Of a stretch of DNA of 64,000 bases, positions 5,967 to 61,561 are shown piece by piece. The position numbers and the translations under genes are program-made. The notes beneath the pieces were generated by a model. The model made no database searches. It worked only from the letters and a program-made list of their open reading frames with translations, and was not told the origin of the DNA. The stretch's first letter is position 1, and every line of letters begins with the position of its first letter. Source of the DNA: Candidatus Aenigmatarchaeota archaeon (GTDB taxonomy: Archaea; Aenigmatarchaeota; Aenigmatarchaeia; GW2011-AR5); assembly GCA_016184005.1 (NCBI GenBank), contig JACPDL010000003.1, positions 171,632-235,631 on the forward strand, written 5' to 3'.

Positions 5967-6020
5967 CGTCCCGACTTTTTCTGCAAATCTTTCATCATCA
6001 TTCTATCACAGTTCTTTTTT

Positions 6021-6125
6021 CTTTTGGGGTTTATCTGCAAAAGCCTGAAAGGCTTTTGAGACACCAGAGAAGCTTTGCTTCTCTGAGTGCAAAGACCTTT
6101 TCTTTCCTAAAGAAAAGGTCTTTGT
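6021..6125. repeat. Family-B palindromic repeat element (three consecutive hairpins); copy 1
   Basis: gcaaaagcctgaaaggcttttg, agagaagctttgcttctct and aaagaccttttctttcctaaagaaaaggtcttt hairpins; near-identical inverted copy at 29001-29090. Confidence 0.7.
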
Positions 6126-6889: not shown

Positions 6890-6953
6890 AACAAATCCCT
6901 TTTCTTTAAGAAAGAAAAGGTCTTTGTATGTCCCAAAAGAAACTTACAAAAAC
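6890..6953. repeat. Family-A start-codon-abutting palindromic element, copy upstream of L19e
   Basis: Reverse complement reads ttttgtaagtttcttttgggacatacaaagaccttttctttcttaaagaaaagggatttgtt immediately followed by the ATG of L19e. Confidence 0.7.
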
Positions 6954-7156
6954 CATTTCTTTACTCTTTCTTTTCAATTTCATCTCCACTTAAGTCCAGA
7001 ATTTTGTCTGGGGTTCTTTCTGCCTGCCTAGTACTGACACATAATATTTGTTGAAAGCGATGTCGCACCTGTTGCAATGATATGTTTCCTTCGAGAGCTG
7101 TTTACTGGCGTCTCCGCAAAACGGACATTTCCCATCGCCAAATGCAACAAACATTT

Positions 7157-9605: not shown

Positions 9606-10281
9606 TTATCACGGGTTTTTCTTTGCCTACGACAAACACAAAATCCCTTGGGAGGCTGACGCTTCTGTTCCCAAGTGCCACGACTGCCTGATTGGGCTTG
9701 GCGCTTCTCGTGACTATTATTTCCTTGATTTTTCCGACGTCGCCGCTGTTGTTGCCGGCTGTTACAAGCACCACGGAATTCTTTTCGAGTTTCAGCACTT
9801 CCTTCACATTCATTTCGGGCAAGCCAATAACAAGAACGTCTCCTGTGGAGCACTTCACGCTTGAAATCATATTTGTCCCGTCGTGCAGGTTAAGCTGCAG
9901 CTTTCCGCCAATCCAGTGCTTGTCCTCCACCCTGCAAAGCCTCACGCCAGTTTCTTTTCCTTCGATCTTCTGCAGGTACAAGCCGTTCTTTGACACAAGC
10001 ATGCGGTATTCCTGGCCGCCGACAGACAGTATATCCATCAGGCCCACGGGGAAATTCTGTCTGGACCTCTTGACGCCGTTGACTTTCACGAATCCACTGA
10101 GCAATATCTCCCTTGCTTCTTTCATGTTATCTGCTACTTTCATGACGTCGCGCAGTATTACGCCCAGCGGCGTGCATTTCTCTTTCGAGTGCGGCCCAGG
10201 GCTTGGGCTTACGCTGTATTTCTTTGTTTTCCTTTCAATCGGCCAGAACTTTGGCGCTGCGTGTCTTTTCAATTTTGACAT
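9592..10281 (-). CDS. rps4e: 30S ribosomal protein S4e
   Basis: LKRHAAPKFWPI N-terminus, S4 and KOW domains; archaeal/eukaryal-specific protein. Confidence 0.9.
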   Translation of the reverse strand: MSKLKRHAAPKFWPIERKTKKYSVSPSPGPHSKEKCTPLGVILRDVMKVADNMKEAREILLSGFVKVNGVKRSRQNFPVGLMDILSVGGQEYRMLVSKNGLYLQKIEGKETGVRLCRVEDKHWIGGKLQLNLHDGTNMISSVKCSTGDVLVIGLPEMNVKEVLKLEKNSVVLVTAGNNSGDVGKIKEIIVTRSAKPNQAVVALGNRSVSLPRDFVFVVGKEKPVINVGV

Positions 10282-12975: not shown

Positions 12976-13034
12976 AACAAATCCCTTTTCTTGAAAGAAA
13001 AGGTCTTTGTAAACCCCAAAAGAACTTACAAAAC
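12976..13034. repeat. Family-A start-codon-abutting palindromic element, copy in the L22-S3 intergenic region
   Basis: Reverse complement ...ttttgtaagttcttttggggtttacaaagaccttttctttcaagaaaagggatttgtt-ATG(S3). Confidence 0.7.
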
Positions 13035-13052
13035 CTTTTCTTTAGTTAATTA

Positions 13053-17367: not shown

Positions 17368-17748
17368 CTATCTGACCGCTTTTCTGCTGCCTTTATTGCC
17401 CTTTCTTCTTGGTATCTTGGGAGAAGCTTCGCTTCTCCGAGATTCCAAAAAGCTGCGCTTTTTGAGAATGTTGAATTCTGTCATCATCATGCCTCTTATA
17501 AAATTTGGATCAAAAGAAATTATATCAGCAAACTTATCTGCTATTTTATCTGCACTCAAATTCATCAGCCAATACTGCGTTGCCAAATATTCTGGCAAAG
17601 ATTGTGCAAGCCCATCATCCCTGACTTGCATTTCTAATGCGGCATATGTGCCTATATATCTCGATCTCTTAATTCCAGGATCATCTAGCGTTCTTGTTCC
17701 AACTATTATTTCCTCGAAATCTATGGCGCCTGTTGTCTGGTATGTCAT
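17368..17748 (-). CDS. Hypothetical 126-aa protein between L3 and L4; its 3' end overlaps a MITE-like repeat
   Basis: Intact ORF in operon orientation; C-terminal codons run into repeat copy M3 (17416-17468). Confidence 0.35.
   Translation of the reverse strand: MTYQTTGAIDFEEIIVGTRTLDDPGIKRSRYIGTYAALEMQVRDDGLAQSLPEYLATQYWLMNLSADKIADKFADIISFDPNFIRGMMMTEFNILKKRSFLESRRSEASPKIPRRKGNKGSRKAVR
17416..17468. repeat. Family-M MITE-like element, truncated copy (hairpins 1 and 4 only)
   Basis: cttgggagaagcttcgcttctccgagat tccaaaaagctgcgctttttgagaa matches the ends of the copies at 36970-37076 and 20469-20575. Confidence 0.7.
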
Positions 17749-17750
17749 AA

Positions 17751-18719
17751 TTATTTCCCCTGCTTGCTTTCAACAGAAACATAACGTATGTCAGCAGGCA
17801 CAACCTTCTGCGTGCGCACTGATTTCCTGATTCTTACAAGCCTTTTCCTCGGCCCGGGAACGCTGCCTTCAATGAGCAGGAAAGTCTTCAGGTCCCCGTA
17901 GCCGACGAAACCGCCTGCAGGAGTCACTTTCTTGCTGTCATCGCCGATCATCAGGACCCTCTTGCTGAATTCGGTGCGCGTGAAGAATCCGTATTGCCCT
18001 GCGGCCGGCACGCGCCAGTCGACTTTCCTCGGGACAGTAGAGCCTATGCTGCCGACGTGGCGGTGCATCTGCTTGTCTTTCCTGAACTGTATCCTTATTC
18101 CGAAACGCTTTACAGGACCGGTGAAACCGCTGCCCTTTGTCACAGCACTTGCATCAATATACTCGCCAATTCTGAAGACATCAACGGCCTTGATCTCCTT
18201 CCCAAGCACGCTGCTGGCATATTCGAGCTTCTTGTTCAAGTCGCCGCCAACGGCAATCTCGAAGATTTCCGGCTTGAACTTCCTCATCCCGCTCTTCAAA
18301 GGCTGCGTGCAGACAACCAGCCGCACATCATCCACGCCGCTTGTATCGCAGTCCTTGCTGCCCGGATTCGCGGCTCCAGTCTTGCGCTTGATGTCTATCT
18401 CCTTCGGGACCTTTGCCCATTTTTCACCGGCTGTTGAAAGGCCTGAAGGCGTCTTTTTGTAGTAGCGCACAGCCGCAACAAAAAGCGCGGGCGCGTCAAG
18501 TATTGTCACGGGAGAAAATATTATTTTGCCGTATGCAGGGGATTTAGGATTGTTGTCTATGTGCTGCACGTGCGTCATCCCTGCCTTCCAGCCTGCAAAA
18601 CCAAGCGGCTTTGCGTCATTTGATGGCTGCCAATGGGATACCCTTGGGTAAATACGCTTTGCCCTTTTTCTGGGCCAGAACTGTAGCGATCCGTGTCTTG
18701 GTCTTGTTCTCTTCGGCAT
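17751..18719 (-). CDS. rpl3: 50S ribosomal protein L3 (uL3)
   Basis: uL3 motifs (FxxGxxVDVxGxxKGKGFxG); first gene of the cluster. Confidence 0.9.
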   Translation of the reverse strand: MPKRTRPRHGSLQFWPRKRAKRIYPRVSHWQPSNDAKPLGFAGWKAGMTHVQHIDNNPKSPAYGKIIFSPVTILDAPALFVAAVRYYKKTPSGLSTAGEKWAKVPKEIDIKRKTGAANPGSKDCDTSGVDDVRLVVCTQPLKSGMRKFKPEIFEIAVGGDLNKKLEYASSVLGKEIKAVDVFRIGEYIDASAVTKGSGFTGPVKRFGIRIQFRKDKQMHRHVGSIGSTVPRKVDWRVPAAGQYGFFTRTEFSKRVLMIGDDSKKVTPAGGFVGYGDLKTFLLIEGSVPGPRKRLVRIRKSVRTQKVVPADIRYVSVESKQGK

Positions 18720-18864: not shown

Positions 18865-19347
18865 TTATCTGTGATCATCAAGACTTTTCATTAAATCTCT
18901 TACATCGGGAGGGTTTTGCATGTATGATTTTAAGTCCGGCGCTTTTCTTCTCGCTTCCTCTTCCCTGCCAAGAACTATCAGCGTATCCGCGCAGCATATT
19001 TGCCTTTGTTCTCTTTGGTAAATGCCGTCGCTAAACACCCAGGAATTGACTTCAGGGTTCCCCGGCCACGGGTTGGTTCCAAAATAACCAAAGACTTCAG
19101 CTATCTGTTTCCCATCGTTGCCCCACAAAGCCATTATCAAGAAATCATCCGGTTCAAATAACTCGGTGTATTGTTCAAAAATCTTTCCAATAAAATCAGG
19201 CTTATTTAGGTCTATATAAGTCTGTGGAAGGTTGACGGAGCTGTCGTAGGCGTCTGTGAAAAGAGTTTCATGGACATAAACCCTTGTTGGCTTCACTGCA
19301 TGCTGCATCGAAAATCTTCTTGAGAAAGGCATAGTAGTCACATTCAA
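18865..19347 (-). CDS. Hypothetical protein, member of a tandem paralog pair (shared PWPGNPEV-SWVF-DGIYQR-QR...LIVLGREEEAR...NPPDVRDLM core)
   Basis: ~50% identity over the C-terminal 110 aa with ORF 19611..20081. Confidence 0.45.
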   Translation of the reverse strand: MNVTTMPFSRRFSMQHAVKPTRVYVHETLFTDAYDSSVNLPQTYIDLNKPDFIGKIFEQYTELFEPDDFLIMALWGNDGKQIAEVFGYFGTNPWPGNPEVNSWVFSDGIYQREQRQICCADTLIVLGREEEARRKAPDLKSYMQNPPDVRDLMKSLDDHR

Positions 19348-19610: not shown

Positions 19611-20081
19611 TTAACTTCTCATTAAATCTCTTACATCTGGAGGATTATCCATGTAGTGTTGTAAATTTGGTGATTTTATTCTTGCTTCTTCTTCTCGCCC
19701 AAGGACAATCAATGTTTCTCCGCAAGCTATAGGTCTTTGTCTTCTTTGATAAATTCCGTCCCTAAAGACCCAAGAACGCACTTCAGGATTTCCAGGCCAT
19801 GGATCAGTTCCAGAATAACCAAAAACTTCAGTAATTATATCTCCATCGTCACCCCACAAAGCAGCGATCAAAAAATCTGTAAGTTTGAAGATTTTTCTAT
19901 CCGTTGCAAAAATGTCCAAAACGTGACTTAAGCCACTATCACTATGATAGTGAATTAGAGTCTCCTTTTTCGGTAGGCGACCGAAGGCGTCAACATAGCC
20001 AGCTTCATGAAAATAAACCCTTAACGGTTGTCTCACATGCGTTGAAACCCTGTCTAGGAACGGCATAGTATTCAAACTCAC
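19611..20081 (-). CDS. Hypothetical protein, paralog of 18865..19347
   Basis: Shared conserved core; abuts the start of the PKD-repeat protein gene. Confidence 0.45.
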   Translation of the reverse strand: MSLNTMPFLDRVSTHVRQPLRVYFHEAGYVDAFGRLPKKETLIHYHSDSGLSHVLDIFATDRKIFKLTDFLIAALWGDDGDIITEVFGYSGTDPWPGNPEVRSWVFRDGIYQRRQRPIACGETLIVLGREEEARIKSPNLQHYMDNPPDVRDLMRS

Positions 20082-22141
20082 TAAACATCTTCGTAAACAA
20101 TCTCGATGCCGACCTTGCCGGAGACTGTCGTGTCAGAAGCTGCCGAGAATTCTATCGTGTTCAGCTGCCTGAAGTATTCCTTTGGTATGGCTTCGCCTAT
20201 GATCTTGTTGTCGTTCAATATTACAGCAGCGCCGCGGGGCAGCACAGTGATCCTCGCGGACTTGAAGCCCTGCAGCTCGTTGTCCAGCGTGAAATCAAAC
20301 CTGTCCTGCGTGGCTTTCTCCACGTCAGCGATAACAGAAGCCCTGATCTCGTAAACAGCCGGCGTCCAGAATATGAATCCAGACGATGTGGCCCTGATCT
20401 TGAGCAGGCCCTCCGCATCTGCATTAACCGGTATTATTAATCTGCCTTTTTCATACCTGGCGGCAAAATTCTCAAAAAGCGCAGCTTTTTGGAATTCTCG
20501 AAATCCAAAGGATTTCGGAATCTCGGAGAGACGGAGTTTCTCCGAAGATCTCGGAGAAGCTTCGCTTCTCCCAAGATTAGCAGTCTTCAATGCTGCATTG
20601 TCAGGCACAGGCTCAGGTTTTCCCCTGAATAATTCCTCATCATCAAGCGTAACGACAAGCTCCCCGAGCCTGTTTGTTTCCTTGACTTCTATAACAACCT
20701 CCTTGACAAAGGATTTCGGCACGTCAAGCCTTATCTCATTGCTGCCGAACAAGAGGCCGTTGAACAGCCTTTTAGCCGACACGAATGAATCCTCTTCCTT
20801 GAAATTGGCGATGTCTATGCCGAACTCCAGAAGCCTTTTCTTCTCGCCCGGTGTCTTTCCGTCTTCATCAACAATCCCAAGGGCACCAACCGTTATTGTG
20901 ACACTGGAAGGCGCCAGATCAATCAGCCCTTCAGCATCACGCGCATTGAGGGTGGCTATGTATCTGCCATCCCTCTGGTAAATATGGGTAAGTGTCTGTA
21001 TTGATTCTACTGTCGGCAGGGATTGTGCCTGGCCGTCACCAAAATCCAATACGCACGAGACAAGCCGCCTCTGCAGGTCCCTGCAGCGTGCGGCAAATGT
21101 TACCTGCAGCGGAGCAGGGCCGCTTGTCGGCGTTGCCTGCAAGTCCGTAGTAGGCGCATTGCCTATATCCGATTCAACCACGATTGTGACTTCAGCAGGC
21201 GTAGCGTCTATTCTGCCCCTCTCATCAGAGGCCCGGACCTTTGCTATCCTTCGCAGGTCGCTAACCTCCGGGTTGACGTAAACATGGCTGATCTGCTGCG
21301 GCGTTTCTATATTGAGCAGGTTTTGCTGCTCCCCGTCGCCGAATTCTATGACGCATGAGCTGATATCGAAGTTAGCAGAAAAACACAGGACATCAAAGTT
21401 TACCAGTAAAGGCGATTTTCCTCTCACCGGGAAGGCGCTGATGAAAGTCTCAGGCTTGTCGCTAAAGCCGGGCAATACCTGTATCATGATTCCGGCGGGC
21501 GTCTGGTCCCCTGCGCCGGAGTCGTCTCTCGCGCTAAGTATAGCCGGGCGGAAAATGATTCTTTCCCTTTCGTTCTCGTAAGTATGAAGAACAGTCTGCG
21601 GCGTTTCAGCGTTTGTAAGCGCCTGCTTAGCCCCGTCGCCGAAATCCAGTTCGCATGAAGAAATCAACCCATCGTCGTCCTTGCATGTCGCTATGAATGT
21701 GACTTCCAATGGCGATTCGCCTGTCGTCGGAAATGCCTGCAAAAATGTCTGGGGCTCAATGTTTGGCCTCACAACGCTGATTGTTATCAAAGAGGGCGTC
21801 TGGTCGCTGTTGCCGAAGCTGTCTGTTGCTGTAAGCGTGACAACAAAGTTGCCTGTCGTGGAATAGGTGTGGGTTATTGTCTGAGGCAGCTGTATCCTCT
21901 GGAGAATCTGGTTCGTGCCGTCGCCGAAGCTGATTATGCACGAAGCGATCTCAATGTCGTCCTTGCACAATGCCGTAAATATGACTGTCATCGGCGCGTT
22001 GCCAGAAATCTGCGATGCCGTCAATGTAGTTTCAGGAGACGTCGCATCCTGTATTGAAATAAGAACAATCTGGGCGCTAACAGTGCTGACTAGAATCATG
22101 AGCGCCATCAACGCCGATAAAAGTCCTGTTACTCTTGCCAA
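20081..22141 (-). CDS. Secreted surface protein with four PKD-like repeats and a C-terminal domain containing an in-frame MITE-like insertion
   Basis: N-terminal signal peptide MARVTGLLSALMALMILVSTVSAQ; four ~95-aa repeats each with an FGDG motif; segment LGRSEASPRSSEKLRLSEIPKSFGFREFQKAALFE is encoded by repeat copy M2. Confidence 0.6.
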   Translation of the reverse strand: MARVTGLLSALMALMILVSTVSAQIVLISIQDATSPETTLTASQISGNAPMTVIFTALCKDDIEIASCIISFGDGTNQILQRIQLPQTITHTYSTTGNFVVTLTATDSFGNSDQTPSLITISVVRPNIEPQTFLQAFPTTGESPLEVTFIATCKDDDGLISSCELDFGDGAKQALTNAETPQTVLHTYENERERIIFRPAILSARDDSGAGDQTPAGIMIQVLPGFSDKPETFISAFPVRGKSPLLVNFDVLCFSANFDISSCVIEFGDGEQQNLLNIETPQQISHVYVNPEVSDLRRIAKVRASDERGRIDATPAEVTIVVESDIGNAPTTDLQATPTSGPAPLQVTFAARCRDLQRRLVSCVLDFGDGQAQSLPTVESIQTLTHIYQRDGRYIATLNARDAEGLIDLAPSSVTITVGALGIVDEDGKTPGEKKRLLEFGIDIANFKEEDSFVSAKRLFNGLLFGSNEIRLDVPKSFVKEVVIEVKETNRLGELVVTLDDEELFRGKPEPVPDNAALKTANLGRSEASPRSSEKLRLSEIPKSFGFREFQKAALFENFAARYEKGRLIIPVNADAEGLLKIRATSSGFIFWTPAVYEIRASVIADVEKATQDRFDFTLDNELQGFKSARITVLPRGAAVILNDNKIIGEAIPKEYFRQLNTIEFSAASDTTVSGKVGIEIVYEDV
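20469..20575. repeat. Family-M MITE-like element (four consecutive hairpins), full copy lying in frame inside a CDS
   Basis: ~95% identical to the reverse complement of 36970-37076. Confidence 0.75.
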
Positions 22142-28928: not shown

Positions 28929-29000
28929 TCAATCTATAAATCCTGCTTAATAAAGTTTCTGCACAAATTCATCAGAAAGGGCCGATAGATCAATACAGAT

Positions 29001-29090
29001 CCCTTCTTTGTAAAGAAGGTCTTTGTGCACCGAAAGCAAAGCTTTCTGGCATCTCAAAAGCCTTTCAGGCTTTTGCAGACAAACCCCAAG
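29001..29090. repeat. Family-B palindromic repeat element, inverted copy 2
   Basis: Reverse complement ttggggtttgtctgcaaaagcctgaaaggcttttgagatgccagaaagctttgc... matches 6021-6125. Confidence 0.7.
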
Positions 29091-29154
29091 AAACAGAGGA
29101 CTTCGCAAATATTAAGGGATTGTGAGAATGGAAGATCGCTTGCATGGCAAGAGG

Positions 29155-29241
29155 AGAAACTACGTATCTCCCTCTACCCTCTCCCTTCTGAAGGAAACGA
29201 GGTTAGAAGGAGAGAAACCATGGGTTTCTTCTCCTCTTATG
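29155..29241. repeat. Family-D structured repeat (gaggagaaactacgtatctccctctaccctctccctt...) flanked by a 7-bp direct repeat caagagg
   Basis: Shares ~38 bp with the inverted copy at 32999-33036; internal hairpins; 7-bp flank duplication at 29148-29154 and 29242-29248. Confidence 0.5.
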
Positions 29242-29276
29242 CAAGAGGCTTCGGGTTCGAGTCCCGATCGGTCCAT

Positions 29277-29327
29277 CATCCAATCCCTTTCTTAAAAAGA
29301 AAGGTCTTGGAGAACCCCAAAGAATAA
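29277..29327. repeat. Family-C repeat atccaatccctttcttaaaaagaaaggtcttggagaaccccaaagaataa, copy 1
   Basis: Near-identical copy at 36851-36900. Confidence 0.7.
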
Positions 29328-29397: not shown

Positions 29398-29508
29398 GGG
29401 CTCGTGGTCTAGTGGAATGACGCGACGTTCGCAAAGAGGAGAAATATGTATCTCTCTCAAAAATATTGAAATACGTCGAGGCCGGGGGTTCGAATCCCCC
29501 CGAGTCCA
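29398..29508 (+). tRNA. tRNA-Ala (anticodon CGC) with a ~39-nt intron at/near position 37/38
   Basis: Acceptor GGGCTCG/CGAGTCC with G3:U70 Ala identity pair; anticodon stem CGACG/CGTCG; loop TTCGCAA; T-arm GGGGGTTCGAATCCCCC; discriminator A; CCA not encoded. Confidence 0.8.
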
Positions 29509-29577
29509 TCAGTTTTTGGGGTTATAGGTATCTGTTAGTTTTTGAACGCTTTTGAAGATTAAAGTTATAAGATTTTT

Positions 29578-29931: not shown

Positions 29932-30011
29932 AGGTCTTGGGTTAATATTCAACACTATAAAGAGACTCTCAATTTTTGAACGCTTAAATTTATACTGGAG
30001 ACTACACATTC

Positions 30012-30596
30012 ATGTTCAATCTAACGCTAGATACATCTTGTTTTTCTCTAAGAAAAGAGGAAAATTCTTTGTTGAACGAGCTTTTAGAATTACAAGCAGA
30101 TTCAAAAATATTGTTGTACTACGCACCACGAACTTTACAAGAACTTATGATGTCCATTGCAAAGAAAAAAGAATTACCGAAAGTAATTGAAATGAAGATA
30201 AAATATAGGTTTCGAGATGTGTTCAGAGATTATTTAGAAAATATGGACGAGATTGACCCAGAACTCGAATGGGAAGACGAGTTCCACGAAATAGGACTAT
30301 TTGTTACAAGAGTATGTCTCGAAATTACTGACAAAAACGTAATAGAAAAGTTAGAAGTGTCAGAAGAAAACTTACGTAGATATTTGGATAGCCAGAAGAA
30401 CCATAACAGTCATACAGATATTGATATATTCACATTTCATGTTATGAACAAAGGTAATATATTCCTGACTAAAGATGTACCGTTGTTTGTAAGTAATCAA
30501 AAAACAAGAGAAACACTGGAAAATAAATATAACACAAAAATTAGACTCCTAAATAAAGATTTTATTGAAGAATTAAAAAATATGATAGAGGCTTGA
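30012..30596 (+). CDS. Hypothetical protein, possibly a PIN-like nuclease
   Basis: N-terminal LTLDTSCF (PIN motif-I-like Asp), downstream acidic residues, C-terminal IFLTKDVPLF (PIN motif-IV-like T-x-D). Weak assignment. Confidence 0.35.
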   Translation: MFNLTLDTSCFSLRKEENSLLNELLELQADSKILLYYAPRTLQELMMSIAKKKELPKVIEMKIKYRFRDVFRDYLENMDEIDPELEWEDEFHEIGLFVTRVCLEITDKNVIEKLEVSEENLRRYLDSQKNHNSHTDIDIFTFHVMNKGNIFLTKDVPLFVSNQKTRETLENKYNTKIRLLNKDFIEELKNMIEA

Positions 30597-31777
30597 TGCT
30601 TATGGAGTCTATGAATTATAAAAGTCCAATTAAGGTCAGAAATATAGAAATAGTAAATCAGTTAAAAGAGTTCTATTCTCTCTCTTCAAATATTGATTTA
30701 CCAAAAGACATAGAAACTCAAGTAATTGACATTGCCGTCAAGAAGATTGATCAAGATAAAAAAGTTGTAGAAAAAAGATTATTGGGATTAAATAAAGAAG
30801 ATGAATTTGTACTGACTTCTCTTCTGTTAGGAAATGCCCTTCAAGTTACAAGGCTTTCACAACAAAAGATTACACAAGATTTAGATTATCAAATACCAGA
30901 TTTTTTAGTATGCACTAGGGTTCCAAAAATTGTAGATAAAGATGGGGATAAAATAAACAGGTTTTTTGTAGAAGTCAAAAAATTATCAGAGAATGAAAGT
31001 GATTTTAAAATAACGCAGGATTATTTTAATAAACTTAAGAAATATTGCAAAACTTACTCTTTGCCACTTTACTTTGCAATTAAGTTAGAGCTTGGAGGTG
31101 TTGGTTTTTCTCAATGGGCTTTAATTTTCTCTGATACCGTAGAAAACTCTGGACAAATTAAAAAGCTAAAAATAAGAAAAGATAGCAAAGAAGAAGATTG
31201 TTATTTATTTACATTGAAAGACTTATTATCGAAAGACTTCTCAGGTTTATGGATGGACAATCATCTATTATTTTTGTCGGAGGGTTCGGTCTATAGAAAG
31301 GTTTATGATATTAATAAAGAATCCCCAATTCATATTACATCTGAAACAGGCGAAGATTTGGGAGGACTTGTAGAAGTAGAATTAAAAAACGGTAGTATTT
31401 CTGAAAAAGTAACGTTCGAAAAAGATAAACATGATGTCAGAGATATAATTTTCTATAATATTGCAATGAGAATAGCCAGAGGTAAAGAAACAATACAGAC
31501 TACAAATACGACAACTGAGAAAATTATAGAAGCTGATAAAAACTATTCAATCCCGCTTTATCATTTAGTTTTAGAAATTTACCTTCACTTACGTTCAAGA
31601 TTTGGAGAAAGCTGGAAGGAACCCAGATCAGATATAAGTTTTTACTTATCCCACTTAACAGACTTTGATTATAAAATATCTTATTTTATAAGAGATATAA
31701 TAATTAATTTACACAAGAATAATATAATTAAATTAATTAGAATGGTACCAGATTTTTTAATGGAAAATGATGACTAA
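30593..31777 (+). CDS. Hypothetical protein with a PD-(D/E)xK nuclease-like core
   Basis: IPDFLVCTRVPKIVDKDGDKINRFFVEVKK = PD ... E-V-K spacing typical of the restriction-endonuclease-like fold; start overlaps the upstream stop (ATGA). Confidence 0.45.
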   Translation: MMLMESMNYKSPIKVRNIEIVNQLKEFYSLSSNIDLPKDIETQVIDIAVKKIDQDKKVVEKRLLGLNKEDEFVLTSLLLGNALQVTRLSQQKITQDLDYQIPDFLVCTRVPKIVDKDGDKINRFFVEVKKLSENESDFKITQDYFNKLKKYCKTYSLPLYFAIKLELGGVGFSQWALIFSDTVENSGQIKKLKIRKDSKEEDCYLFTLKDLLSKDFSGLWMDNHLLFLSEGSVYRKVYDINKESPIHITSETGEDLGGLVEVELKNGSISEKVTFEKDKHDVRDIIFYNIAMRIARGKETIQTTNTTTEKIIEADKNYSIPLYHLVLEIYLHLRSRFGESWKEPRSDISFYLSHLTDFDYKISYFIRDIIINLHKNNIIKLIRMVPDFLMENDD

Positions 31778-31989
31778 TTTAATTTCTCCTTAACTTTCCC
31801 ATAAACCTTGAATGGCTTGTCAGACCTAGCATGTTTTCTCAAATAATGCAAAGAACTCTTGTTTATGCCAATTTTCTTTGCTTCTGACTGGGATAAGCTT
31901 AATATTTTTTGCCTCAACTTAAAGTCATCCTCTCTTTTCAATACTAGTGAAGGCTCTGAAAAGTCGATGCTAGGCTTCTTACCTATCAA
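31774..31989 (-). CDS. Small hypothetical ORF (71 aa) at the distal edge of the island
   Basis: Intact ORF; no family recognised. Confidence 0.2.
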   Translation of the reverse strand: MIGKKPSIDFSEPSLVLKREDDFKLRQKILSLSQSEAKKIGINKSSLHYLRKHARSDKPFKVYGKVKEKLN

Positions 31990-32135
31990 GTAATGAGCCA
32001 GTTCTTGAGCTTTAAATAAAGTGATTTTCAGTTTTCAAATCCTTATGTCCTCGAGTCCATTGAACCTCAGGTATAAGCCACGATGCTATCCAAATCTTTA
32101 ATAGTATTCTTCACTATTAATTATAGGCGAATTGT

Positions 32136-32998: not shown

Positions 32999-33036
32999 AA
33001 GGGAGAGGGTAGAAGGAGATACGCAGTTTCTCCTCT
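32999..33036. repeat. Family-D repeat, inverted partial copy
   Basis: Reverse complement gaggagaaactgcgtatctccttctaccctctccctt matches 29150-29187. Confidence 0.5.
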
Positions 33037-36850: not shown

Positions 36851-36900
36851 AATCCAATCCCTTTCTTAAAAGAAAGGTCTTGGAGAACCCCAAAGAATAA
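36851..36900. repeat. Family-C repeat, copy 2
   Basis: aatccaatccctttcttaaaagaaaggtcttggagaaccccaaagaataa. Confidence 0.7.
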
Positions 36901-36969
36901 ATATGGCTGCTTTGTGTCTTGCTATCGGAACTACAAACCAAAGGCTTTCTGCTTGGAGAACCCCAAAGT

Positions 36970-37076
36970 CTTGGGAGAAGCGAAGCTTCTCCGAGATCTT
37001 CAGAGAAACCTCGTTTCTCTGAGATTCCGAAATCCTATGGATTTCGAGAATTCCAAAAAGCTGCGCTTTTTGAGAA
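36970..37076. repeat. Family-M MITE-like element, full copy: four consecutive perfect hairpins
   Basis: gagaagc-gaa-gcttctc; cagagaaac-ctc-gtttctctg; cgaaatcc-tat-ggatttcg; caaaaagc-tgc-gctttttg. Flanked by the 19-bp direct repeat aataaatatggctgctttg (36896-36914 and 37077-37095). Confidence 0.75.
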
Positions 37077-37083
37077 AATAAAT

Positions 37084-38256
37084 ATGGCTGCTTTGCAGCC
37101 TATTAAATCTTCGGTTAGAACGATAGTTATGCTTGAAAAATACAAGGAAATGCTGGAGGACAGGACGGCGATGGGCGGGCTCGCGACATTCGTGCCGAAC
37201 AAGAAGCTTCCAGTATATAACTGGCTGTATTTTAAGGAGGGCTTCTCGAAAGAACTGGTTAATTTTCTGGCAGAACAATTCAGGCTGCAGCCCGGCATGA
37301 CTGTTCTGGATCCTTTTTGCGGCTCGGGCACGACACTGGTTGCGTGCAGAGAGCTCGGCGTCGACAGCATAGGCTTTGACGTCCTGCCGCTGTCTGTTTT
37401 TGCCGCGCACGTGAAGACAAGAGGCTACGATACTGCAAAACTGAAAGAAGCGTCCGCACAGCTGTTTTCCCAGAGGTTCATGAAAATAAAAGAAGAATTT
37501 CCGCCTATAATGAAAAAAGCATTCTCAAAATACGCCCTTGAAGACATATCTTTCTTTCGCAGAAACATCGCGCAGATAGAAGACGGCACCATGAGGAATT
37601 TCTTTTTGCTGGCCCTGATAAGCGCTGCCATAAGGGTCAGCTACGCCTGGAAAGACGGTGCGGTGATAAAAATAAGGAAATCCCACAGGCCGCCTTTACG
37701 ATTCATGCTGAAAAGAACGATACAAAGAATGGTAAAAGACGCGGGTAAAATGAAAGGCCGGGCACAATGCACTGTTCAGCAGCGCGATGCAAGGACAATG
37801 AAGCTTGATGATGAAACCATAGATGCAATCATAACCTCCCCGCCTTACCTCAACCAGATAGATTACACAAAGGTCTACGAGATCGAGAACCTTTTCATCA
37901 GGGGCTTATATGAAAAACCGCCAATGAGGTCTTACATAGGGCTTGAAAGCGACACAGAGTTCCTGCCTGAACTGGATCTGCCAAAAGCAGCCAACGCCTA
38001 TTTCCATGATATACATGAAGTCCTGGAAGAAATGCACCGTGTGTGCAAACCGGGAGCACCGGTCGCTGTTGTCGTCGGCAACGCCTATTTTCCAGGCAGG
38101 ATAGTAGACAGCGACCTGATTATATGCCATCTGGCCGATTCAGCAGGATTTAAGATTGACAGAATATCTGTATTGAACGCGCGCTATGCACTGGAAGACC
38201 GCACAACAAAGAAAGGCGTGCTCCGGGAAAGCATGATAATAATGCACAAATCATAA
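37084..38256 (+). CDS. DNA methyltransferase (N6-adenine/N4-cytosine type, SPPY motif), apparently solitary
   Basis: Motif I LDPFCGSGTT and motif IV ITSPPY. Track ORF begins at 36919 by reading through the repeat; start placed at the ATG inside the duplicated 19-mer. Confidence 0.65.
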   Translation: MAALQPIKSSVRTIVMLEKYKEMLEDRTAMGGLATFVPNKKLPVYNWLYFKEGFSKELVNFLAEQFRLQPGMTVLDPFCGSGTTLVACRELGVDSIGFDVLPLSVFAAHVKTRGYDTAKLKEASAQLFSQRFMKIKEEFPPIMKKAFSKYALEDISFFRRNIAQIEDGTMRNFFLLALISAAIRVSYAWKDGAVIKIRKSHRPPLRFMLKRTIQRMVKDAGKMKGRAQCTVQQRDARTMKLDDETIDAIITSPPYLNQIDYTKVYEIENLFIRGLYEKPPMRSYIGLESDTEFLPELDLPKAANAYFHDIHEVLEEMHRVCKPGAPVAVVVGNAYFPGRIVDSDLIICHLADSAGFKIDRISVLNARYALEDRTTKKGVLRESMIIMHKS

Positions 38257-38381
38257 AAAATAAATTGTAAGTTTAAAAATTCAACGCTTAATCAAGGAAT
38301 GGTTAAAAATGAACTATAGCAAAGAACTGTCTTTGAATATATTTCTTTGGGACATCTGCAGGAATTCTCAATTCCTGCGAT

Positions 38382-38445
38382 GCAAGAGAAGCCTTGCTTC
38401 TCTTCGCATACAAAGACCTTTCTTTGCTAAAGAAAGGGATTTGTT
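38382..38445. repeat. Family-A start-codon-abutting palindromic element
   Basis: gcaagagaagccttgcttctcttcgcatacaaagacctttctttgctaaagaaagggatttgtt-ATG. Confidence 0.7.
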
Positions 38446-60279: not shown

Positions 60280-60351
60280 GAAAAAGAAAGGTCTTTGTCA
60301 GTTTCTTTGGGGTTTACAAAGACCTTTCTTTTGTAAAGAAAGGGATTTGTT
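60280..60351. repeat. Family-A start-codon-abutting palindromic element
   Basis: aaagaaaggtctttgt-cagtttctttggggttt-acaaagacctttctttt-gtaaagaaagggatttgtt-ATG(RFC). Confidence 0.7.
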
Positions 60352-61302
60352 ATGGAAGAGATATGGACAGAAAAGTACAGGCCCAGATACCTCAAGGATC
60401 TTGCTGGCCAGCAGCATGTTGTGAAGCGGCTGGAGTCCTTTGTGAAGAACAAATCACTGCCTCACTGCCTCTTTGCCGGGCCCGCAGGCGTTGGAAAAAC
60501 CACTTGTGCATTATGCATTGCGCAGGAGTTCTTTGGCAATTCATGGAAGAGCAATTTTCTCGAGCTTAATGCATCAGATGAGCGCGGAATAGACACAATC
60601 AGAGTCAAGGTGAAGGATTTCGCAAGAACAATGCCAATAGGCGGCTCCTTCAAGATAATTTACCTGGACGAAGCAGATTCCCTGACAAAGGATGCCCAGC
60701 ATGCGCTGCGCAGGACCATGGAAAGTTATGCGGCCACGTGCAGGTTCATACTCGCCTGCAATTACAGCAGCAAAATAATACCGCCGATCCAAAGCAGGAC
60801 GGTTATTTTTCGCTTCCATCCTCTTGGCAAAGAGGACATGGAAAACTGCCTGAAAAAAATAGCAAAAGAAGAAAAGCTGAAAGCAGACGATGGCTCTTAC
60901 AAAGCTATACTGCATGTAGCTGAAGGCGACATGAGGAAGGCAATTAATATACTGCAGACATCCGCAGCACTGGACGGAAAGATAACGGAGAAGGAAGTCT
61001 TTGCAGCAACAAGCCATGCAGATCCGGAAAGGGTAAAGAGGATGCTTTCCCTTGCAATTGAAGGCAAATTCAAGGAAGCCAGAAAAGAGCTTACGTCACT
61101 GCTCTTCGAGGAAAGCCTTGCGGGCGAGGACGTGATCAAGGAGATATATTCACAAACAGTCAAGCTCGATATCGATGACAAGAAAAAACTCCAGCTTATT
61201 GAAAAGATCGGCGAATATGAATTTCGCCTGACAGAAGGCAGCAATGCCCAGATCCAGCTTGAGGCGCTGCTCGCGCAGATGGCGCTAGCGGGGAAGAACT
61301 AG
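60352..61302 (+). CDS. rfcS: Replication factor C small subunit
   Basis: Walker A GPAGVGKTT, DEAD box DEADSLT, SRC motif, clamp-loader C-terminal domain; no intein. Confidence 0.9.
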   Translation: MEEIWTEKYRPRYLKDLAGQQHVVKRLESFVKNKSLPHCLFAGPAGVGKTTCALCIAQEFFGNSWKSNFLELNASDERGIDTIRVKVKDFARTMPIGGSFKIIYLDEADSLTKDAQHALRRTMESYAATCRFILACNYSSKIIPPIQSRTVIFRFHPLGKEDMENCLKKIAKEEKLKADDGSYKAILHVAEGDMRKAINILQTSAALDGKITEKEVFAATSHADPERVKRMLSLAIEGKFKEARKELTSLLFEESLAGEDVIKEIYSQTVKLDIDDKKKLQLIEKIGEYEFRLTEGSNAQIQLEALLAQMALAGKN

Positions 61303-61376: not shown

Positions 61377-61561
61377 GCCGAGGTAGTTCAGCGGTAGAAC
61401 GCCACGCTCATAAAGGCTTTTCTTTTAAAAAAGAAAACCCTGGAAAAGAAACAGAAATAAAAATTGGAAAGAAAACTTTCAAGAATTATGAGCTTTGAGA
61501 TGCTTTGCATCAGTGATAATGAGAAACGTGGAGGTCGTGAGTTCGAACCTCATCCTCGGCA
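61377..61561 (+). tRNA. tRNA-Met (anticodon CAT, elongator-type) with a ~113-nt intron (61414-61526)
   Basis: Acceptor GCCGAGG/CCTCGGC; D-arm GTTC-AGCGGTA-GAAC; anticodon stem CCACG/CGTGG; loop CTCATAA; T-arm GTGAG-TTCGAAC-CTCAT; discriminator A. Confidence 0.7.

Follow-up and report, generated by a model that had tools for sequence, protein, structure and literature searches.

A mobile hairpin module at the core of tRNA introns and, inverted, at start codons in Aenigmarchaeota

The Correia/NEMIS repeats of Neisseria and the REP/BIME repeats of enterobacteria are co-transcribed intergenic hairpin repeats of bacteria: short, multi-copy, gained and lost between strains, and able to affect the processing or stability of the mRNAs of neighbouring genes. 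Among archaea, the Thermoproteales carry near-identical tRNA introns at many positions, a pattern described as "intron transposition" (Fujishima et al., 2010, in PMC4090602). Haloferax HVO_1309 has a bulge-helix-bulge intron in its 5' untranslated region, the single known case (PMC7714728), and a promoter has been proposed inside the intron of an adjacent "recently split" tRNA-Asp of Aeropyrum pernix (PMC3218864). Here we describe a hairpin repeat in a 64,000-nucleotide (nt) stretch of a Candidatus Aenigmatarchaeota archaeon genome (GCA_016184005.1, contig JACPDL010000003.1, positions 171,632 to 235,631; hereafter the window), which lies within tRNA introns and, in the opposite orientation, directly before start codons.

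The element shares features with each of these systems. Like the bacterial repeats, it is short, multi-copy, intergenic and hairpin-forming; it differs in having an archaeal host, in abutting start or stop codons (0-1 nt), in doubling as a predicted spliceable tRNA intron, and in that we found neither a target-site duplication nor a common target. The introns of Thermoproteales likewise spread within a lineage and carry the splice motif at their exon-intron junctions. Here, by comparison, a defined hairpin-plus-tail module supplies the inner helix of that motif, the host belongs to a DPANN lineage, and the module recurs in inverted form at start codons and behind stop codons of protein genes. 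With HVO_1309 it has in common a structured insertion in an archaeal mRNA leader, related to tRNA-intron biology, but it is multi-copy, is reversed relative to its orientation in tRNAs and shows no bulge-helix-bulge geometry on the mRNA strand. The A. pernix case is similar as a long tRNA-gene insertion with extra signals; here, however, we found no canonical promoter in the terminal hairpin, and the tRNA fragments are more simply read as cis-spliced exons. The literature that we searched contained no report of this Aenigmarchaeota element and no account of one module that forms the core of tRNA introns and, in inverted orientation, flanks protein genes on their 5' side.

We favour, with moderate confidence, the reading that this is a mobile RNA-structure element of Aenigmarchaeota, serving as tRNA-intron core and as mRNA leader or intercistronic hairpin, and not as a promoter. 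It would represent a lineage-specific family of short modular hairpin repeats that persists only at the few permissive sites of compact genomes, its hairpin end always in contact with functional sequence. Three contexts are envisaged: inside tRNA genes, where a first and a third arm would pair as the inner helix of the bulge-helix-bulge; immediately downstream of stop codons and tRNA 3' ends; and, inverted, exactly between a transcription start (or upstream cistron) and a start codon.

A hairpin maintained by compensatory change

The repeat unit consists of an 11-nt tail (TTTCTTTGGGG), a spacer of exactly 3 nt and a hairpin of 35-40 nt, termed H1. Arm A' (ACAAAGACCTTTCTTT), a loop of 1-6 nt and arm A'' (AAAGAAAGGGATTTGT) make up H1, which pairs as a 5-bp outer stem, a 2x2 internal loop with GA opposite GA and a T/A-rich inner stem of 8-10 bp. 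Three window copies have an extra upstream arm, A, perfectly complementary to A', and additional arms with that sequence are common.

A first-pass annotation of the window had reported a shared module of ~60-70 bp, with zero spacer, before the ATG of four genes: RFC small subunit, MBL-fold hydrolase and the ribosomal proteins L19e and S3. All four copies are present at those positions (Table 1), Pfam confirms the four downstream genes, and each copy ends in ...AAAGAAA(A)GGGATTTGT, then one T, then ATG. One T separates the last paired base from the start codon. The MBL copy shares with the others only the tail and the terminal hairpin: two unrelated hairpins lie between these, the first arm is absent, and the composite folds at -52 kcal/mol (z -6.2). 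The sequence cttttgggg, assigned by the annotation to the hairpin loop, is instead the conserved tail, which precedes the terminal hairpin by exactly 3 nt. The L19e copy and 27 nt of spacer beside it make up the whole 100-nt gap after a small zinc-ribbon open reading frame (ORF; stop 6990-6992).

An nhmmer profile and a covariance model identified eight confident copies and one degenerate copy in the window, all non-coding and five of them additional to the four above; covariance-model E-values for the eight range from 4e-14 to 1e-5. The 16-mer of arm A', allowing up to 3 mismatches, occurs 19 times in the window against 1.25 expected, and the terminal 17-mer AAAGAAAGGGATTTGTT 10 times against 0.55. 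No Rfam family matched the element, and the search returned only sub-threshold generic hairpin matches.

The hairpin is selected for pairing, which is kept by compensatory changes. Across an alignment of 30 diverse copies the paired cells amount to 97.6%, both sides change in 9 of the 14 pairs, and 47 compensatory cells are observed against 11.2 +/- 2.6 after shuffling (0 of 500 shuffles reached the observed value); in slid controls the paired fraction falls to 41-75%. The outer stem varies from ACAAA:TTTGT to GCAAA:TTTGC, TCCAA:TTGGA, ACCAA:TTGGT and GCCAA:TTGGC, while the tandem G.A/A.G mismatch is conserved, GA facing GA in 52 of 59 hairpins. In the L19e copy, a compensatory double change from C:G to T:A separates the window from its close relative L171 (S3 98% identical). 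Copies before ribosomal protein S6e in two genomes have 32/32 arm bases identical, a comparison partly biased in that both loci were found through the exact arm sequence; their loop and spacer differ, and synonymous sites between the two genomes are saturated (41% identity at third positions of identical residues). In predicted RNA folds H1 is dominant, with the AUG immediately 3' of it, at -14.8 kcal/mol on the mRNA strand (z -2.75 for the RFC copy) and -12.5 on the tRNA strand. Among the functions proposed by the first-pass annotation, an RNA hairpin fits best, given the stem covariation and the C:G to T:A change. A kink-turn or L7Ae site was considered and rejected: the tandem G.A pairs are present, but in a symmetric 2x2 internal loop without a 3-nt bulge.

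The same covariation bears on a protein-binding or DNA-level site, either an operator through which a regulator would act jointly on translation genes and tRNAs or, where genes adjoin, a bidirectional oligo-T terminator or insulator. Copies do lie at the boundaries of translation-apparatus genes and tRNAs, T-rich arms follow directly on stop codons and tRNA 3' ends on both strands, and the inner-stem sequence is conserved beyond mere pairing. The outer-stem covariation, however, points to nucleic-acid pairing and not to half-site recognition; the T-runs, mostly T3CT3-4, are shorter than typical archaeal terminators; and the same sequence occurs inside tRNA genes and before essential operon-internal genes, where termination would be harmful. 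We regard such a site as highly improbable.

The module as tRNA-intron core

The module is the conserved 5' core of Aenigmarchaeota tRNA introns, a role absent from the first-pass annotation. The sequences at the A'' end fall into recurrent classes that define two contexts with opposite orientations, tRNA genes and coding sequences. In the tRNA class the flank of A'' is the antisense of a tRNA exon, and the order on the tRNA strand is exon, ACAAATCCCTTTCTTT, loop, AAAGAAAGGTCTTTGT, then AWKYCCCAAAGAAA. Copies were found in the T-loop (13), the D-loop (about 11) and the anticodon loop (2), and directly after the tRNA 3' end (5). Those inside the loops interrupt otherwise intact tRNA genes, and their removal restores the cloverleaf. 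Because the intron mode of ARAGORN was too permissive on spliced candidates, we used a stricter junction-spanning filter and a search for T-stem and acceptor complements. After in silico splicing, ARAGORN recovered junction-spanning tRNAs from 12 copies but from no start-codon copy. For all eight T-loop introns with unambiguous 3' exons, the 3' strands of T-stem and acceptor, the latter fully complementary, lie 72-202 nt downstream. The tRNA-Ala(CGC) of contig L160 equals the window tRNA-Ala (29398-29510) plus a 79-nt D-loop insertion.

The junctions of these eight T-loop introns share a relaxed bulge-helix-bulge motif, its geometry judged by hand (L153, L148, L131, L132). The T-stem is followed by a bulge of 2-3 nt, a central helix that pairs exon TTCR with intron YGAA, an AAA bulge that holds the 5' splice site, and an inner helix of the first arm, a1 (ACAAAUCCC), with a third arm, a3 (GGGAUUUGU), close to the 3' splice site. 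The central helix covaries, with TTCA:UGAA in L132 and TTCG:CGAA in L131. Pairing of a1 with a3 is perfect, whereas a1:a2 (H1) carries U.C/C.U mismatches on the tRNA strand, so the splicing-competent fold should be favoured. From these features we predict that the insertion is spliced out as an intron by the tRNA-splicing endonuclease, through the bulge-helix-bulge built by a1:a3. Reading the region after the second arm as a mini-ORF was rejected, since the "ATG" that some copies have there on the tRNA strand varies (ATG, ATT, AAA, ATA) and the sequence is non-coding.

Two of the confident window copies belong to this class, as does the degenerate one. The arrangement of the post-tRNA copy in the spacer before tRNA-Ala recurs in L160, and D-loop introns homologous to that of tRNA 28980-29276 are present in L127, L142 and L169. 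In its default mode ARAGORN detected no tRNA in the window, against three in intron mode, and Rfam detected only two. The ARAGORN isotypes for tRNA 28980-29276 are inconsistent; it is probably a tRNA-Lys(CUU) whose second intron, of 90 nt, lies near position 31/32. Window tRNA introns are very long or multiple: this tRNA has the D-loop and the 90-nt intron, and tRNA-Met (61377-61561) one of 113 nt. In two metagenome contigs, L130 and L150, a decayed copy of the first 10-16 nucleotides of a tRNA, with the element after it, lies directly upstream of an intact copy of that tRNA; these partial duplications differ in kind from a target-site duplication and look like traces left by recombination or by the gain or loss of an intron.

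Copies at start codons: leader or promoter

Placement was assessed in ribosomal-protein operons fetched through S3 homology and not through the element sequence (8 genomes, 180 kb), where the covariance model gave 27 matches. Fourteen lie 0-1 nt from an ATG: RFC, MBL, S3 and L19e in the window; S3, L19e and a MazG-like gene in L171; L22 in L172; L2, S4e, L6 and L19e in archaeon GW2011_AR5 (AR5); and L2 and S17 in L168. Seven directly follow a stop codon in the opposite orientation (the MazG-like ORF in the window; L5, S8, a zinc-ribbon ORF and S19 in AR5; RNase P p29 in L170 and L167), three are D-loop introns (window, L169, L167), two follow a tRNA 3' end (window, L170) and one abuts a TATA box (window, 36853-36899). 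In all 14 start-codon cases the hairpin end, never the tail end, adjoins the start codon. Further Pfam-confirmed genes with a copy at the start codon encode S2 (L156), S6e (L112, L157), L18 (L166), S3Ae (L100), aEF-1beta (L144) and an aminotransferase (L097). Placement is non-random, highly ordered and strictly oriented.

Native first genes in this organism have leaderless mRNAs, with a TATA box (TTTATATA, CTTATAAG or CTTTTAAG) ending 20-23 nt before the ATG, and native operon-internal genes have a Shine-Dalgarno sequence of the GGTGA type. The element supplies neither such a TATA box nor a clear Shine-Dalgarno sequence. Among start-codon copies, 9 of the 11 that have a TATA-like octamer carry the best one ending 16-27 nt (median 21) upstream of the tail, against 6 of 20 tRNA-class copies, and such spacing would place the transcription start at the left edge of the element. 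Both genomes with saturated synonymous sites retain a TATA box ahead of the S6e copy. Copies at genes are thus most likely transcribed leader hairpins, with transcription predicted to start from the upstream TATA box.

The first-pass annotation had suggested a promoter for leaderless mRNAs. In that explanation arm A' (ACAAAGA-CCTTTCTTT) would be a portable surrogate for the BRE (the TFB-recognition element) and TATA box, ~20 nt upstream of the ATG, which would yield leaderless mRNAs and internal promoters for S3 and L19e. The organism clearly has leaderless mRNAs, the T-rich arm and the ATG are 16-21 nt apart, and the essential S3, L19e, S2, S6e and L18 genes tolerate an insertion that displaces the native Shine-Dalgarno sequence or promoter; a precedent exists inside the tRNA "intron" of A. 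pernix (PMC3218864). Yet the segment at about -29 to -21, CCTTTCTTT, has no TpA step and no A/T octamer resembling native TATA boxes. The distance from arm to ATG varies with loop length, whereas the hairpin base stays fixed at 0-1 nt, and canonical TATA boxes lie upstream of the element. An identical hairpin with the same polarity faces ~30 tRNA exons and seven upstream stop codons, where it would drive antisense transcription. Because of the missing TATA-like box, the variable arm distance and the antisense transcription expected elsewhere, we judge the promoter unlikely. A position matrix from 123 putative first genes held at most 0.24 bit per position, too little information to score the module.

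In the leader reading that we prefer, the element would be transcribed within the mRNA and fold into a stem-loop, 5'-terminal or intercistronic, with its 3' base against the AUG, replacing the native Shine-Dalgarno sequence or the zero-length leader. A role at the RNA level would account for the preserved pairing at fixed sites: the hairpin might protect RNA ends left by intercistronic processing, be removed to yield a leaderless mRNA again, or present the AUG. As a candidate cryptic Shine-Dalgarno sequence, the GGGAU located 5 nt from the AUG gives a predicted duplex of -5.4 kcal/mol with an assumed 16S 3' end, compared with medians of about -6.2 for native genes and -4.5 for shuffles. Pairing of the tail with purine-rich first codons appears in the RFC and S3 folds but not generally among the copies, and was set aside as a low-complexity coincidence.

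Several points weigh against this reading. The evidence from TATA spacing is modest, resting on ~15 versus 28 copies and a crude octamer rule, and upstream of the operon-internal copies there is no TATA box. No bulge-helix-bulge is seen in RNA folds of the mRNA strand, where H1 is directly followed by the AUG, and consequently no known enzyme is implicated in leader removal. We know of no archaeal initiation signal made of a 16-bp hairpin flush with the AUG and lacking a clear Shine-Dalgarno sequence, nor, to our knowledge, does any insertion mechanism account for a hairpin end that always faces the gene. A specific scan yielded 41 metagenome-contig loci, all with tail, spacer and H1, whose near-invariance is inflated by the fact that most metagenome copies were found with an exact 24-base pattern. 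A bulge-helix-bulge intron in the mRNA itself was also tried and rejected: a central helix and bulge following the inner helix would put the cut inside the coding sequence.

The opposite orientation of the two classes raises a further idea, namely that tRNA-sense copies in introns and trailers, as exact antisense partners, act in trans on the leader copies on mRNAs for ribosomal proteins, aEF-1beta, RFC and others. The single-stranded tail (CCCCAAAGAAA versus UUUCUUUGGGG) might serve as a toehold, and the U.C/C.U and G.A/A.G mismatches that weaken the hairpins in cis would become Watson-Crick pairs in trans, coupling tRNA transcription and splicing to the expression or processing of translation-apparatus mRNAs. 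Such pairing would explain the opposite orientations, the conservation of arm and tail sequence in both classes and the conserved mismatch. Predicted trans-duplexes gain -17 to -52 kcal/mol, compared with -3 to -9 for shuffled partners; these energies are the expected outcome of reverse complementarity and no evidence that pairing occurs. We consider the idea speculative and very unlikely.

Mobility, relatives and other features of the window

The element is mobile on an evolutionary time scale, being gained and lost between relatives. The L22-to-S3 junction measures 77 nt in the window but 5-9 nt, with a Shine-Dalgarno sequence, in L167 and L169, which are element-free there. L172 (S3 82% identical) retains just a remnant arm at S3, with a full copy at L22, and copies in relatives occupy other ribosomal-protein genes (L2, L22, S17, S4e, L6). 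The L19e site is also occupied in L171 and in AR5/L169. The window and L171 also differ at the L19e-to-MazG junction, where an insertion or deletion accounts for ~200 nt of such modules; nested within the H1 loop of L171 are two more small hairpins. The first-pass annotation held that copies placed at random relative to genes would make the repeat a plain miniature inverted-repeat transposable element (MITE). It is mobile and MITE-like, being multi-copy and variably present among close relatives, yet highly ordered in placement. We detected no target-site duplication at filled versus empty tRNA-Ala D-loop or S3 junctions, and no constant flanking or common target sequence around the copies examined. 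A palindrome derived from IS200/IS605, with a fixed tetra- or pentanucleotide target, was rejected since the flanks of the hairpin vary (CAT(A), TTCAAAA, CAGT, CAAC, CCA, TGA).

Mobility is also what a purely selfish repeat without function on host mRNAs would show. On that account flush placement reflects tiny intergenic gaps and survivorship, with copies visible only where removal or decay is lethal or insertion is harmless. Gain and loss among close relatives whose genomes differ in the genes occupied, and modules nested in one another's loops, agree with it, and with empty operon gaps of only 3-9 nt any insertion would be nearly flush on both sides. It does not fit the compensatory change that keeps pairing at the fixed orthologous L19e site (window, L171 and AR5), the identical S6e arms at saturated synonymous divergence, or the 14 of 14 unbiased cases with the hairpin end at the start codon. 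We hold this account to be rather unlikely, and continue to prefer a leader hairpin with a putative role at the RNA level.

S3 homologues assign the window to the Aenigmarchaeota, the nearest named relatives being "Candidatus Aenigmarchaeota archaeon" and archaeon GW2011_AR5. Among the matches listed, and recognised by inspection of the flanks, the complete module is present in at least six contigs of archaeal metagenome-assembled genomes; a scan of 596 Gb of genome collections with the bare 16-mer, which is too short, gave mostly single chance matches. Logan unitigs bearing the RFC gene all break inside the element, 49 nt before the ATG, a signature of a multi-copy repeat. On contig L044, binned as Thermoplasmata WOFA06, a tRNA T-loop intron begins with an element-like hairpin; either the family reaches beyond the Aenigmarchaeota or the contig is mis-binned. 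A related Aenigmarchaeota genome, L168, carries a different start-codon-flush hairpin module with a canonical Shine-Dalgarno sequence (...TGAGGTGTYTGCAAR|ATG).

If the favoured reading is right, one defined module would explain how tRNA introns multiply and move in a DPANN lineage, traceable copy by copy. It would link introns to leaders, the same module colonising the 5' edge of essential genes and displacing native initiation signals, and so offer a natural test bed for archaeal initiation without a Shine-Dalgarno sequence or a 5'-terminal AUG. The complementarity of introns and leaders would raise the possibility of intron-derived regulators in archaea. For annotation, it would mean that gene callers over-extend S3, that tRNA-finding programs overlook interrupted tRNA genes, and that assemblies break at the repeat. 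Public gene calls lengthen S3 N-terminally across the element (12976-13047; protein P0001), giving 234 aa instead of the true 210 aa, and many database S3 homologues of 225-285 aa are probably extended likewise.

Table 1. Copies of the hairpin module and other features, with positions in the window unless another genome is named
Feature	Position	Strand	Parts and context	Support
Copy at RFC small-subunit gene	60283-60351	+	Arm A 60283-60298; tail TTTCTTTGGGG 60302-60312; H1 60316-60350 (arm A' 60316-60331, loop 60332-60334, arm A'' 60335-60350); T 60351; ATG 60352	Pfam (RFC); covariance model 73.4 bits, E 4e-14; H1 dG -14.8 kcal/mol
Composite copy at MBL-fold hydrolase gene	38342-38445	+	Tail TTTCTTTGGG 38342-38351; unrelated hairpins 38356-38379 and ~38382-38407; H1 38410-38444; ATG 38446	Covariance model, fold, Pfam
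Copy in L22-to-S3 junction of ribosomal-protein operon	12976-13043	-	Arm A 13043-13028; tail 13024-13014; H1 13010-12977; ATG 12975	Covariance model, Pfam
Copy before L19e	6890-6962	-	Arm A 6962-6946; tail 6942-6932; H1 6927-6891; ATG 6889	Covariance model, Pfam
Opposite-orientation copy in operon, after MazG-like ORF	6014-6125	-	Perfect palindrome 6074-6125, its H1 (6125-6090) beginning at last base of the ORF's TGA stop; two other hairpins; tail AAACCCCAAAAGAAAAAAG 6032-6014, upstream of L18	Covariance model, Pfam
Copy as 5' core of D-loop intron in multi-intron tRNA 28980-29276	28995-29041	+ (tRNA strand)	Followed by two more hairpins, tail CCCCAAGAAAC and third arm GGGATTGTG near 3' splice site	
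Copy starting 3 nt past discriminator base of tRNA 28980-29276	29279-29326	+ (tRNA strand)	Spacer before tRNA-Ala	
Copy with variant outer stem TCCAA:TTGGA	36853-36899	-	Abuts TATA box (ATTTTAAG) of cytidylate-kinase-like gene (Pfam; ATG 36824)	Covariance model
Degenerate copy AAGGCTTTTCTTTTaaaAAAGAAAACCCTGGAAAAGAAAC	~61412-61451	+	5' end of 113-nt canonical intron, tRNA-Met	Weak nhmmer match
Other hairpin modules	6041-6089, 17415-17468, 20548-20576, 29053-29076, 36896-37095			
22-nt module GTATCTCCYTCTACCCTCTCCC	29164-29185	+	Second intron of tRNA 28980-29276	
22-nt module GTATCTCCYTCTACCCTCTCCC	33001-33022	-	Intergenic	
Four direct repeats, 300-nt period	21024-21943		Inside 686-aa ORF 20081-22141	
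Neighbouring similar ORF segments (160, 156 aa)	18883-19146, 19614-19877		264 nt at 75% identity	
Low-GC island	30001-32000		Covers ORFs 30012-31777	
L168 Shine-Dalgarno hairpin module	9847-10000, 17688-17886, 18352-18410 (L168)		Before S3, L19e, L18	

Other short intergenic hairpin modules recur in the window, often chained beside the main element; they include a GAGAAGC-N3-GCTTCTC type, CAAAAGCC-TTTC-GGCTTTTG, CAAAAAGCTGCGCTTTTTG and AATAAATATGGCTGCTTTG. The 22-nt module occurs twice against 0.01 expected, and a similar sequence is found in tRNA introns of L127 and L044. Elsewhere in the window, the direct repeats suggest that the 686-aa ORF encodes a protein with ~100-residue repeat domains, the two neighbouring ORFs have the look of tandem paralogues, and the low-GC island (GC content 0.30 versus ~0.45 elsewhere) may be foreign DNA.

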